Source: Aulosira sp. ZfuVER01
Lineage (GTDB): Bacteria; Cyanobacteriota; Cyanobacteriia; Cyanobacteriales; Nostocaceae
Assembly (NCBI GenBank): GCA_034530615.2
Contig: JAVRCV020000007.1
Coordinates: forward strand, 96,001 to 160,000
Direction of reading: 5' to 3'
DNA: 64,000 bases
Shown here: positions 17,009 through 23,704 of the stretch, piece by piece
How the letters are laid out: each line of letters begins with the position of its first letter
Position numbering within the stretch: the stretch's first letter is position 1
The notes under the pieces: model-generated
Told to the model about the DNA's origin: nothing
The model's input: the letters and a program-made list of their open reading frames with translations, nothing else
Database searches by the model: none
Program-made: the position numbers and the translations under genes

Positions 17009-17815
17009 TTGAGTTACGACAACGCTTGTAAATATTTAGCTGAACAGTACCCAGCAGATTTTGTGCGCTGGTTACTAGGAGTAGACGCGCCACAAATTGA
17101 AATCTTAAAAACTGAACTGACACTAGAACAAATTCGTGCAGATTCTGTGACATTTCTGCAAGCAGCTAACAAAATTTTACATATCGAATTTCAAACATTA
17201 ACGATATCCGATCCGCCACTTAACTTCCGAATGCTCGATTATTCGGTGAGGTTAAAGCGTCAATATCGATGTCCTGTAACCCAAGTAATCATCTTTTTAC
17301 AGGAAACTACTAACGAAATGGCTTTTGCTGAAGAATATCGAGACGACACAACAATTCATCAATATCGGGTAGTTAGATTATGGGAGCAAGATTCAGCAGC
17401 GTTTTTGGCAAATCCTGCACTGTTACCTCTAGCAACATTAACCAGAACTGAATCACCTCAAGGACTGCTTGCACAAGTTGCCGAACGAGTCGCTACAATT
17501 CCAAATAGAGAGCAGCGACAAAATATAGCTGGTTGTATAGAGATTTTGGCTGGATTGCGGTTTGAGAAGGATTTAGTTCAGCAATTTTTACGGGAGGATA
17601 TTATGAAAGAATCTGTAATTTATCAAGATATCGTTCAAAAAGAAGCATTGAAATTGATTAGCCGTATGCTTAAACGGCGTTTTGGCGATATTGATGCATC
17701 ATTATTTGAACAAGTTCGGAATTTATCTGCTGAACATTTAGAAGATTTAGGAGAAGCGTTGTTTGATTTCTCTGAATTTGCTGATTTGGTAGCTTGGTTA
17801 GAAGAGCATAATTAA
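17009..17815 (+). CDS. Rpn-family (PD-(D/E)XK) recombination-promoting nuclease / putative transposase, DUF4351-like C-terminus
   Basis: YDNACKYLAE start, RADS...HIEFQ nuclease motif, FRMLDY, C-terminal LEDLGEALFDF. Confidence 0.85.
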   Translation: MSYDNACKYLAEQYPADFVRWLLGVDAPQIEILKTELTLEQIRADSVTFLQAANKILHIEFQTLTISDPPLNFRMLDYSVRLKRQYRCPVTQVIIFLQETTNEMAFAEEYRDDTTIHQYRVVRLWEQDSAAFLANPALLPLATLTRTESPQGLLAQVAERVATIPNREQRQNIAGCIEILAGLRFEKDLVQQFLREDIMKESVIYQDIVQKEALKLISRMLKRRFGDIDASLFEQVRNLSAEHLEDLGEALFDFSEFADLVAWLEEHN

Positions 17816-17847
17816 AATGCTCATTTAAATACAAGTATTTGCGTATT

Positions 17848-18513
17848 ATGTCAAAGTTAACAGAAACTTTAGATAAAATTCTGAATTGGTTAGAAGAACA
17901 TGAAGATTTAGACTTTGCTCGGTTTGAATCATTACAACCTGGACTTACATATAAAGAAATTGAACAAAAATTAACTGATTTATTACCTTTGCGGTTACCC
18001 AAAGAAGTTTATGAACTTTATCAATGGGGTAATGGTGCTTGGTACGACGAGGAAGATTGGGCACGATTTTTTGATAATCGGACTTTTCTTTCTTTAGAAT
18101 CTGCGCTGGATATGTATTTTGGTTTAACAAAATTAGATAAAGAAGCAGATAAATTGGAATTTCCATCTATGTGGAGTGATACTTGGAATACTCGATGGTT
18201 TCCGATTTTCCAAGAACAATATAATACAGGTTTTTATGCAGTTGTTCTTGATGAAGCACAAAAAGAAACAACGCCAGTATTAGATATATTTTTGGAAGAT
18301 TGTGATGATGAGCCTTTTATCATCTATCCAAGCATAACTAAAATGATACTTGCAGAAGCAGAGCTTTATGAATCCGGTTATTACTTGCAGAAAGCTGAAC
18401 TCAAACAGTTAAGCTATGACTTGCAATCAAGATATAGATCAGCTTTAGATGAAGAGGCAAAATATATTCGCCAAAAATATCAAGATATGCACATCAAGGT
18501 TTGGCGACAATAA
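17848..18513 (+). CDS. SMI1/KNR4 (SUKH) family protein
   Basis: LQPGLTYKEIE...LPKEVYELYQWGNG...FLSLE pattern; the ATG at 17848 is preferred. Confidence 0.75.
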   Translation: MSKLTETLDKILNWLEEHEDLDFARFESLQPGLTYKEIEQKLTDLLPLRLPKEVYELYQWGNGAWYDEEDWARFFDNRTFLSLESALDMYFGLTKLDKEADKLEFPSMWSDTWNTRWFPIFQEQYNTGFYAVVLDEAQKETTPVLDIFLEDCDDEPFIIYPSITKMILAEAELYESGYYLQKAELKQLSYDLQSRYRSALDEEAKYIRQKYQDMHIKVWRQ

Positions 18514-18657
18514 AAACTAACAAGCACAGTATTTTTACAAAAAAATCAATAGCTGGTTAACATACTTAATCTTTCACTTCGTGCAAAAACACTCAGAAAA
18601 AACTTTGCGCCTCTGCGCCTTTGCGTGAGATTATTATCCCTGCTGCTACACAAGATA

Positions 18658-19503
18658 ATGAGTGAAATTCTAGAAAAAGAAGTTTCTAATACTTGGCATG
18701 GCAAACTTAATTTAGTCTACGCCGATCGCCTAAATACCACCCAGCTAATTTACAATCACCAGCAAGCACCGCTAAAGGTACAGCGTCCGTTTTATCCCGA
18801 AGGCGAAAAAGTCTGTCACAGCGTCATTTTACATACGGCTGGGGGAGTCGTGGGAGGCGATCGCCTTTCTCTCAATTTCCACCTCCAACCCCACGCACAA
18901 GCATTAATCACTACAGCTGCCGCTAGTAAGATATACCGCAGCAATGGACTGCAAGCGAGACAAACCATTGAGATTCAAGTTGATGCTGGCGCTTGTTTGG
19001 AATGGCTACCCCAAGAAACAATTTTGTTTAACAGTGCGATTTATCGGCAAGATTTACGGGTAGAATTAGCAACCGGAGCTAGTTGGTTAGGCTGGGAAAT
19101 TACGCGATTAGGGCGCAGTGCGAGAGGAGAAAAGTTTTTGCAAGGAGAATGGCGATCGCATACCGAAATTTGGCAGCAAGGTGTTCCCTTGTGGATCGAT
19201 CGGCAATATTTACCGGGTAGTGAAGAAGTTTTCCACAGTCCTCACGGCTTGGCTGGACAACCAATAGTAGGTAGTCTGGTTTGGGTTGGTAATCCAGTTG
19301 AATCGGAAATAGTGAAAAAAGCACGCAGTTTATGGCATGGTGCAGGAGAGGTGGGAGTGTCGCGACTACAACATGGACTTTTATGTAGATATCGCGGTGC
19401 TTCCACATCTGAGGTGAGAAACTGGTTTACGGCTGTTTGGCAAATGCTACGAGTTGAGTTTTTGAGTCGTGGTAGCTGTATACCAAGAGTTTGGCAGGTT
19501 TGA
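18658..19503 (+). CDS. ureD: Urease accessory protein UreD
   Basis: [31 protein letters not shown]. Confidence 0.95.
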
Positions 19504-19525
19504 ACGAACCGCAGAGGAGGACGAA

Positions 19526-19846: not shown

Positions 19847-20152
19847 ATGATTCCAGGGGAAATTATTACGCAAGATGGAGAAATTGAATTAAATGCTGGT
19901 CGTGAAACTATTAAACTACTAGTAGCAAATACAGGCGATCGCCCAATTCAAGTCGGTTCGCATTTTCACTTTTTTGAAGTTAACTCCGCCTTAAACTTTG
20001 AGCGAGAACAAGCGCGAGGAATGCGCCTCGATATTCCCGCCGGGACAGCTGTCCGTTTTGAACCAGGCGATGAAAAGGAAATTAATCTCGTCCCGCTTGT
20101 TGGGAGTCGTCAGGTTTATGGGTTTAATGGCAGAGTTAATGGAGGACTGTAA
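19847..20152 (+). CDS. ureB: Urease beta subunit
   Basis: [26 protein letters not shown]. Confidence 0.98.
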
Positions 20153-20161
20153 GGAAGAGAT

Positions 20162-20206
20162 TTTTAACGCAGAGGGGCGCAAAGGGAAACGCAAAGGTAC
20201 GCGGAG
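20162..20206 (+). repeat. Left 45-bp imperfect inverted repeat flanking the GxxExxY gene
   Basis: 37/45 identical to the reverse complement of 20586-20630; built of CGCA(A/G)AGG-like subunits. Confidence 0.85.
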
Positions 20207-20584
20207 TTAGAGTTTGTTTGCTACACGCTTGATGCCTTGTTTGAGGTGGAGAACGTTAAAGTTGAGAATCAGACCGAGTTTACAATTTGTGAGTTTCAGA
20301 TAAGTTAAAAGTTGTACGGAGTGAATTGGGTGAATAGATTCTACAGATTTAACTTCAATAATTACTTTATTTTCTACTATTAAATCTAATCGATATACAC
20401 AATCTAATTCAACTTTTTCATACACAAGCGGTATTGGAACTTGTTTACTAACATGAAATCCCCTCTTCTTCAATTCGTAATACAAACACTCCTCATAAGC
20501 TGACTCCAACAACCCTGGCCCCAACGCCGTATGCACTCTCATCCCACAACCAATTATCGCCCCACTTAAATCATTCTCATCCAT
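20207..20584 (-). CDS. GxxExxY family protein (PD-(D/E)XK nuclease fold), 125 aa
   Basis: GPGLLESAY signature, RLDLIVE...IIEVK, QLLTYLK, GLILNF; start MDENDL. Confidence 0.92.
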
Positions 20585-20585
20585 C

Positions 20586-20630
20586 CTCCGCGAACCTTTG
20601 CGCCTACCTTCGCGCTCCTTTGCGTTTAAA
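20586..20630 (-). repeat. Right 45-bp imperfect inverted repeat flanking the GxxExxY gene
   Basis: Reverse complement aligns without gaps to 20162-20206. Confidence 0.85.
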
Positions 20631-20663
20631 CTCGATTCTAACCTCACTTACAAGGAATGTAAT

Positions 20664-22379
20664 ATGCCTTACAAAATGTCTCGCCGTGCCTACGCAGAAA
20701 CTTATGGGCCAACAGTAGGCGATCGCGTCCGGCTTGCTGATACAGAATTATTTATCGAAGTAGAACAAGATTTCACCACCTACGGCGATGAGGTGAAATT
20801 TGGTGGCGGTAAAGTAATCCGTGATGGGATGGGACAATCCCCGATTTCTAACGCTGATGGTGCTGTAGATTTAGTAATTACAAATGCTTTAATTCTTGAT
20901 TGGTGGGGTGTAGTTAAAGCCGATATTGGTATTAAAGACGGCAAGATTTTTAAAATTGGTAAAGCGGGAAATCCTTATATTCAAAATAATGTAGATATTA
21001 TTATTGGCCCGGGAACCGAAGCCTTAGCAGGGGAAGGTATGATTCTCACGGCTGGCGGAATTGATAGCCATATTCATTTTATTTGTCCGCAGCAGATAGA
21101 AGTTGCGATCGCCTCCGGTATTACGACGATGATTGGCGGTGGTACTGGCCCAGCTACAGGTACGAACGCCACTACCTGCACCCCCGGCCCTTGGAATATG
21201 TACCGGATGTTGCAAGCTGCTGATGCTTTTCCTGTGAACTTGGGATTTTTAGGTAAAGGTAACGCCAGCCAACCCCAAGGACTTATTGAACAAGTAGCGG
21301 CTGGTGCAATCGGGTTAAAGCTGCATGAAGACTGGGGAACTACACCCGCAACCATTGACACTTGTCTCAGCATAGCTGATGAATATGATGTCCAGGTGGC
21401 AATTCACACCGACACCCTCAACGAAGCCGGATTTGTCGAAGATACGATCGCAGCTTTTAAAAATCGTGCCATCCACACCTACCATACTGAAGGTGCAGGC
21501 GGTGGACACGCGCCAGATATTATCAAAGTTTGTGGCGAGGCGAATGTTCTCCCATCTTCCACCAACCCCACACGCCCTTACACCCTCAACACTTTAGACG
21601 AACACCTGGATATGTTGATGGTATGCCATCACCTCGATCCAGCGATCGCGGAAGATGTGGCCTTTGCCGAATCCCGTATCCGTAGAGAAACAATCGCCGC
21701 CGAAGATATTTTGCACGACTTAGGTGCATTTAGCATGATTTCTTCTGATTCTCAAGCGATGGGAAGAGTAGGGGAAGTAATAATTCGCACCTGGCAGACA
21801 TCTCATAAAATGAAGGTGCAACGGGGAATCCTTAACCCACAAACAGAAGAACAAAGGGCTGATAATTTTCGAGCAAAAAGGTATGTTGCTAAGTACACCA
21901 TAAACCCAGCCATTACCCACGGAATTGCTCAGTATGTGGGGTCAGTAGAAGAAGGGAAACTTGCAGATTTATGTTTATGGCAACCAGCGTTTTTTGGCGT
22001 GAAGCCAGAGATAGTTATTAAAGGTGGAATGATTGCATGGTCGCAAATGGGCGACGCTAACGCCAGCATTCCCACACCGCAACCAGTACACATGCGACCG
22101 ATGTTTGGTAGCTTTGCTGGAGCGCGTCATGCTACATCATTAACTTTTGTTTCTCAAGCGGCGTTAGAAAAGGATATTCCCAGTCAGTTAGGTTTGCAAA
22201 AATCGGCCGTTGCAGTTTCCGGGACACGCCAATTAAGTAAACGGGATTTAAAGCTGAATGATGCGCTACCTCAGATTGAAGTAGATCCAGAAACCTATGA
22301 AGTCAGGGCCGATGGCGAATTGTTGATTTGTGAACCTGCGACAGTTTTACCAATGGCCCAAAGATACTTTTTGTTCTAG
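20664..22379 (+). CDS. ureC: Urease alpha subunit
   Basis: [28 protein letters not shown] Ni ligands; start MPYKMSRR after AAGGA. Confidence 0.98.
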
Positions 22380-23596: not shown

Positions 23597-23704
23597 GGGA
23601 GAGGAGAAGCAGGGGAGCAGGGAGCAAGGGGAGAAATGAAAAATGTCCTTGACTCTTGCCTATTGACCCTTGACTTTTGACTTTTGACTTTTGACTTTTA
23701 ACTT
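23597..23704. repeat. STRR-type short tandem repeats (GGGGAGCA-like and TGACTTT)
   Basis: Directly visible tandem heptamer/octamer units. Confidence 0.75.

Follow-up and report, generated by a model that had tools for sequence, protein, structure and literature searches.

A GxxExxY gene boxed by dispersed, lineage-specific repeat arrays in the urease operon of Aulosira sp. ZfuVER01: a candidate REP/RAYT-like system with an unrelated putative nuclease

Introduction

Several bacterial systems combine a low-copy chromosomal gene with flanking repeats that are abundant elsewhere in the genome. REP/REPIN-RAYT systems, REPtrons and TIRtrons share this organization and have gene-specific, intergenic repeat families that can outlast the gene itself (excerpts of PMC3116915, PMC5581495 and PMC3733652). 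A small ORF between complementary arms is also typical of the 23S rRNA intervening sequences that carry an S23p/four-helix-bundle gene (excerpt of PMC4990558). In the genomes of Nostoc-like cyanobacteria, short repeats are dispersed in intergenic regions as small dispersed repeats and STRR arrays. Free-standing homing endonucleases are another type of small element, which takes a tract of the neighboring gene along when it travels. The QxxxY motif is, in turn, a mark of the RecB family of nucleases.

GxxExxY proteins are entered as having an unknown function in a table of PMC3424549. Here we describe a GxxExxY gene enclosed by inverted repeat arrays in a 64,000-nt stretch of DNA from Aulosira sp. 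ZfuVER01 (contig JAVRCV020000007.1, positions 96,001–160,000; hereafter, the window) and compare it with GxxExxY loci and repeats in other genomes. A pairing of GxxExxY genes with repeats was not described in the literature that we searched, which did not cover Elhai et al. (2008).

Results

The GxxExxY cassette between ureB and ureC

The slot between ureB and ureC contains an IR-ORF-IR cassette consisting of a GxxExxY gene and two arms (Table 1). The gene is antisense to the ure genes, with its stop codon abutted by the left (3') arm and its ATG one base away from the start of the right (5') arm. A preliminary description of this DNA had reported 45-bp inverted repeats around the gene, and we reproduced their coordinates and their ungapped match at 37/45 positions. 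A repeat finder lengthened the match to 53 nt at 79%. We scored boxing as the best 45-nt inverted match between both flanks for 5,983 crude gene calls (median 19, 99th percentile 25). The cassette (37 of 45 nt) ranked first genome-wide and, thus, its boxing is not a product of chance. The arms are indeed built of units, although the ~10-nt subunits proposed earlier are better described as four CGC-NN-AG units per arm with a spacing of 10/12/10. No direct repeat spanning both cassette ends was found flanking the unit, in agreement with the reported absence of a target-site duplication. The arms are not private to the cassette; they belong to a repeat family that is dispersed in the genome.

Table 1. 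Features of the urease-operon cassette and of other boxed genes in the genome (window positions unless a contig is given)
Feature	Position	Strand	Basis or remark
IR-ORF-IR cassette	20162..20630
ureB, host gene left of slot	19847..20152	+	
3' arm: AT-rich outer end and four CRCNRAG units at 20168, 20178, 20190 and 20200	20162..20206	+
GxxExxY gene, 125 aa, predicted Cas4/RecB-type PD-(D/E)XK fold	20207..20584	-	profiles, model, alignment
5' arm: four CRCNRAG units, innermost ending GGAG just before ATG	20586..20630	-
Candidate -10 box TAGAAT, just outside 5' arm	20635..20640	-	low confidence
First ten codons of ureC, moving with slot allele	20664..20693	+
ureC, host gene right of slot	20664..22379	+
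Solo three-unit arm of the CRCNRAG family, upstream of ureD	18603..18625	-
One-unit arm remnant between ureD and ureA	19502..19516	+	1-3 units in relatives
Boxed four-helix-bundle genes (L400-L403)	genome G000, C73:145275-145662, C52:159677, C4:15587, C25:213530

The GGAG at the inner end of the 5' arm is likely the ribosome-binding site of the GxxExxY gene. The promoter scan that returned the candidate -10 box gave, by itself, a number of matches at chance level. The motif TA..AT precedes 23/60 5' arms versus 4/60 3' arms, counts that are not independent because they come mostly from two sites. In four DNA contig sets, the cassette form of the window was present in possible source runs and no inverted form was found. 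One low-depth contig had an internal deletion of the GxxExxY gene and another an arms-only joint, neither assignable with certainty.

Rfam searches returned no match to the cassette arms and no rRNA match. They did identify a 5_ureB_sRNA match (98 bits) at window positions 20819–21095 of the reverse strand, antisense in ureC and upstream of the GxxExxY gene on the same strand, which is probably plain homology to the ureC coding sequence. Elsewhere in the window, a DUF4351 gene and an SMI1/KNR4 gene lie between groEL and ureD (17009–18513). Purine-rich and heptamer tandem arrays, which we take to be STRR-like, occupy the gap after a pyruvyl-transferase gene (23600–23700).

The GxxExxY protein

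Profile searches assigned the 125-aa ORF to TIGR04256 (E 1e-44; 151 bits versus a cut-off of 35) and PF13366 (149 bits versus a cut-off of 22) and also returned weak Cas4 matches. The top structural matches of its structure model (pLDDT 96) were PD-(D/E)XK proteins with Z scores of up to 8.0, and Cas4 was near the top (Z 7.9, rmsd 3.2 Å over 99 residues). These middling scores are informative about fold, not function. Foldseek produced no match to the model at E ≤ 0.001, and a structure search of the Atlas recovered the GxxExxY family itself and nothing else. The cassette protein has intact E27, D67, E77, K79, Q91 and Y95 residues. Across the family, D67, K79, E27, Q91 and N108 are invariant in 173/173 sequences and E77 is conserved in 172/173. 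The model and the alignment agree with the fold and the intact D...ExK motif first noted for this protein, which we classify by both traits as a putative nuclease of the Cas4/RecB type of PD-(D/E)XK proteins.

The gene is under purifying selection, with a median dN/dS of 0.125 (range 0.07–0.16 at dS 0.28–0.91) among urease-site orthologs. The family is large (21,115 representatives at 50% identity) and, as RAYT, chromosomal: we found it in 8 of 72,556 plasmid records, in 2 viral contigs and in 0 of 50,697 phage records. Many of its top representatives (P0001–P0013) are tandem double-domain proteins of ~270–295 aa, hinting at a dimer.

Arms dispersed in the genome

A two-unit pattern matched the Aulosira genome 318 times, versus 30 for a reversed control. 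We recognized ~208 arms at 180 loci, most of them solo (153/180 loci), and arm pairs facing inward (17) or outward (9). Most arms are intergenic, with a stop codon as the nearer gene end more often than a start codon (61 versus 27), and few lie between divergent genes (14/163 versus 21% of all gaps). Sixteen of the 182 strong arms sit inside crude ORFs. Three of the four GxxExxY paralogs of this genome are boxed by CRCNRAG-type arms and the fourth is associated with another repeat. Furthermore, tight two-sided enclosure of a gene by the 12 inward arm pairs that are 150–2,500 nt apart occurs solely at three GxxExxY genes, and no other gene family was tightly boxed by these pairs. We also considered RAYT as a partner of the arms and rejected it; the two Y1-like genes of this genome lack such arms.

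The comparison of arms with their orthologous loci in relatives was based on 50 colinear loci, as 60 of 110 loci were dropped for non-colinear flanks. Gene-less orthologous arms (28 loci, 82 units) diverged by 4–9% at constant positions, 24–29% at variable positions and 20% in the flanks, with conservation inflated by an alignment filter that favors it. Such conservation would be expected if a binding motif is under selection, and equally if the arms convert one another. None of the 50 colinear loci revealed a precise insertion with defined ends. Rather, arm gains were replacements without duplication, some in frame within genes. For example, two loci (L285 and L292, compared with contig C23 of Aulosira) gained or lost an arm in frame in coding genes via short-segment replacement (+6 and +9 nt). 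An arm is also contained in a ~122-nt tandem duplication in another genome (L162, contig C1 of G001). Arms did not mark synteny breaks (20/64 versus 25/97, p = 0.48), and a role as rearrangement hot spots was rejected for this comparison.

Boxing and repeat type across GxxExxY lineages

Inverted match scores of at least 12 were found around 28/30 top cyanobacterial GxxExxY loci (0/27 control windows) and around 42/80 GTDB loci from many phyla (1/72 control windows), the latter restricted to one GxxExxY lineage by the search pattern. Boxing was present in 5/18 more distant loci, a group carrying other repeats or orientations. Flanking inverted repeats are, thus, a general trait of the GxxExxY homologs in the cyanobacterial and GTDB sets, recur over phyla and co-vary with protein lineage. 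Indeed, three lineages of the protein tree carry CRCNRAG, CRCRGAT or ATCC/ATCA-type arrays, respectively, in classes that were defined after seeing the data and excluding six loci with stops or short ORFs (L066, L067 and L340, without a tblastn match, were also left out). All of the 39 loci fetched later, many of them orthologous, fit this assignment. The tracking of protein lineage by repeat type suggests that the enzyme likely recognizes and spreads its own repeats; the agreement could also be plain linkage.

Repeat abundance follows the gene in part. Repeat-rich genomes accounted for 52/63 with a GxxExxY gene and 13/73 without it among 136 class-level genomes (of 301 searched), a comparison with a post hoc threshold and kin that are not independent. 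However, the 13 gene-less genomes are rich all the same and the association was not significant within families f8 and f18. A second search of four very repeat-rich genomes returned no convincing GxxExxY copy. At least 15 CRCNRAG arrays were present in 24/27 genomes with this lineage versus 2/8 genomes with other lineages only (53 hand-picked genomes were counted). The CRCRGAT and ATCC/ATCA types follow their lineages more loosely than CRCNRAG, and each of the ATCC and CRCRGAT types is also common in some genomes from which its matching lineage is missing. The ATCC-type pattern missed the clade-C genomes G103, G232, G167 and G309 (0–4 matches), whose arms are another subtype. A ATCCGTTAC-type 9-mer array family, abundant in the genus of G305, G044, G097 and G203, flanks a divergent GxxExxY lineage (L076–L078).

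The gene is present in only 66/301 genomes of the phylum, at 1–6 copies per genome; a set of 103 loci represented up to 46 different sites. Paralogs in the same genome are at most 72% identical in 71/72 pairs. The remaining pair is 90% identical; the junction of the new copy lies close to the outer end of its 5' arm, and the shared DNA runs past the right (3') arm into the next gene.

The urease slot and a second site in relatives

We searched 40 relatives and examined the ureB-ureC slot at 29 loci, identifying the cassette in 7 and a lone arm in 2. In the other slots, we found either a short gap or an unrelated ORF, in many cases antisense and without flanking arms. The cassette is therefore patchy rather than fixed at this locus, and arm-only footprints exist. 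Within the genus, the cassette occupies the urease slot in 4/14 cases. At least five unrelated alleles were noted at the slot (L009–L018 and L025), and in two loci (L014 and L017) the 5' end of ureC is partially duplicated upstream. The 14 urease-site copies that we collected are all antisense and scattered over the ureC tree. Codon 6 of ureC is Ser in 12/14 cassette alleles versus 0/19 others, and there is no signal beyond 30 nt. Ordinary allelic exchange can explain this tract, because other slot alleles likewise bring their own ureC 5' ends. We read the tract as a sign that slot alleles are likely exchanged by host recombination, and not as proof of homing. The slot is variable, and the urease copy is an old allele there, a resident rather than a recent jumper.

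The preliminary description also envisioned that the arms pair and loop the gene out of the ure transcript, limiting its cost to the operon. The stem can form, yet relatives have antisense ORFs without brackets in this slot and the arms have no G-U bias for either strand, which leaves such a role unsupported.

A second site lies between an FrhB-like gene and a Met-gamma-lyase-like gene. The best 30 of 61 genomes provided 15 cassettes, 10 in one orientation and 5 in the other, and 3 of the 15 copies were broken; of the other genomes, 3 had a gene-less hairpin, 4 an armless junction and 2 a remnant, and synteny was broken in 6. Some cassettes of opposite orientation have the same flanks outside the arms, a pattern that inversion within the arms would produce, and the history of the site requires at least three orientation changes. 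The tree of the cassettes conflicts with those of both flanks (rho 0.23 and 0.33 against 0.79, L230 excluded). Close hosts carry different cassette lineages, with the last 100 nt on each side 86–96% alike. Hence, as read from the sequences, a single site exists in inverted, swapped, gene-less and armless states. Two independent colonizations of this site were not significantly supported (p = 0.076; a single origin is not rejected) and an old two-allele polymorphism also fits. A long co-converted tract beside the cassette was not seen at the urease site, and none was clear at the second site.

Discussion

Proposed mechanism and alternative explanations

Sequence comparisons identify boxing, lineage-specific repeats, a conserved active site, and solo arms with conserved constant positions as traits of this system. 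We propose that the cassette is an enzyme with its cognate repeats, similar to REP/RAYT and built on an unrelated nuclease, a reading in which we place about even confidence. The GxxExxY enzyme would likely bind the phased CRCNRAG arms and cut at or near them. Cutting would create new arms at other chromosomal positions and renew old ones, in the manner attributed to RAYT with REP repeats, and local recombination at the arms could lead to inversion and collapse of the cassette. Spread between strains would proceed via the flanking genes by host homologous recombination, not transposition. Furthermore, pairing of the 3' arm with the part of the 5' arm that holds the likely ribosome-binding site may shut off GxxExxY translation. 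All of these steps, and with them the propagation of the repeats by the protein, are inferred. A bolder version, to which we give somewhat less weight, treats the GxxExxY lineages as minimal Cas4-like nucleases in a new class of chromosomal element that combines enzyme and repeat; each would read its own phased 7-mer arrays, write them around the genome and flip or swap itself at them without a transposase.

Boxing alone is no proof that the boxed protein is the mobilizer, because four-helix-bundle genes share this layout. Four of the six four-helix-bundle (PF05635) genes of Aulosira lie between inverted arrays of short tandem repeats, which are of other types and differ from gene to gene (Table 1). 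We know of no nuclease fold in this family. The arms could then pair in RNA, to be excised by RNase III or to silence translation, or be spread by a host process, with the GxxExxY gene as a passenger like the four-helix-bundle genes. Although we consider this unlikely, a folded stem is obtained for either strand (z -2.7 and -3.3) and repeat-rich genomes without a GxxExxY gene exist. The two arms of one cassette also agree at 83% of variable positions versus 52% when shuffled (97 loci), which fits pairing or a shared origin. Excision by RNase III is, in addition, the fate of the 23S rRNA intervening sequences where the four-helix-bundle family sits (excerpt of PMC4990558). However, pairing cannot explain the upkeep of the motif, because most arms are solo and still keep it. 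The arms show no G-U bias in favor of the strand of the gene itself (45 versus 64, p = 0.08). This result, the weak arm-to-arm agreement among the 14 urease-site orthologs (p = 0.07), the invariant active site and the unbracketed ORFs in the same urease slot also argue against a passenger gene.

A dN/dS of 0.125 would suit a domesticated host factor. The GxxExxY protein would in this case be a site-specific DNA or RNA enzyme of use to the cell. The flanking arms would serve as an operator for its autoregulation, and it would act at the solo arms (e.g., in 3' untranslated regions), with arm spread being secondary. The motif kept in gene-less arms and their intergenic location, nearer stop codons and scarce between divergent genes, are consistent with this explanation. 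Yet the gene is confined to 66/301 genomes at many sites, 3/15 second-site copies are broken and arms persist without the gene, all of which makes a host factor quite improbable in our view. An autonomous insertion-sequence-like element, excised by the nuclease and pasted arm to arm at new sites, would account for the many sites, for arms that abut the start and stop codons, and for the one genome with two 90% identical copies, the newer joined near the outer end of its 5' arm. However, that close pair extends into the next gene, the other 71 paralog pairs are too divergent and phage records lack the family. To our knowledge, a protein of 125 aa is also too short to include any known strand-transfer domain. 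We found no target-site duplication, precise empty sites or near-identical multiple copies in comparisons with relatives that are 10–20% diverged, where recent events could be blurred. Few close paralogs and old orthologous copies are, likewise, at odds with the minimal mobile system of the preliminary description if understood as an insertion sequence, which we regard as highly improbable.

If a REP/RAYT-like enzyme with cognate repeats is the correct reading, it would point to where abundant orphan repeats come from, and an unrelated enzyme would have arrived at the same lifestyle as RAYT with REP. Under the bolder version, cassettes of this kind and those with four-helix-bundle genes would together account for many orphan intergenic repeats in cyanobacteria and other phyla. 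The arms are a concrete candidate substrate for GxxExxY and, therefore, make its function directly testable, since the repeat types of the three lineages can serve as internal controls. A nuclease of 125 aa that is specific for a repeat could also be useful as a tool.

Comparison with known systems

The cassette shares with the 23S rRNA intervening sequences a small ORF between complementary arms in a unit of ~430–470 nt, but it sits between protein genes rather than in rRNA. Furthermore, the intervening-sequence ORF of Coxiella is reported to be decaying (excerpt of PMC4990558), whereas the GxxExxY gene is under purifying selection. The predicted fold, D...ExK and QxxxY are common to Cas4/RecB-type nucleases (SSO0001 and Pcal_0546), although GxxExxY has only 125 aa. 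Cas4 proper is not indicated: the GxxExxY alignment has no conserved cysteines and the inspected neighbors (ure genes) include no cas gene. As in homing endonucleases, a short ureC tract (the first 30 nt) travels with the cassette, but other slot alleles do the same and no long co-converted tract was seen. The arms are also short, intergenic and dispersed like the small dispersed repeats and STRR arrays of Nostoc-like genomes, for which no link to GxxExxY was found in the literature searched, and they may be one of the small dispersed repeat families of Elhai et al. (2008).

The parallel with REP/RAYT drawn in the preliminary description fails for the type of enzyme and the structure of the repeat and stands for the organization of the system. 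The cassette enzyme is a predicted PD-(D/E)XK protein, whereas RAYT is an HUH/Y1 transposase. Each arm is a non-palindromic array of phased 7-mers, in contrast to the palindromic REP units, and the arms are mostly solo, whereas REP mostly form inverted doublets (REPIN). The arms also differ in abutting the start and stop codons. Hence, the HUH Y1 enzyme and palindromic doublets of RAYT systems are missing and their repeat abundance and low gene copy number are present. As in REP/REPIN-RAYT, REPtrons and TIRtrons (excerpts of PMC3116915, PMC5581495 and PMC3733652), a low-copy chromosomal gene is flanked by repeats abundant in the genome; this layout is general, the repeats are intergenic and co-vary with the gene lineage, and arm-only footprints can outlast the gene.
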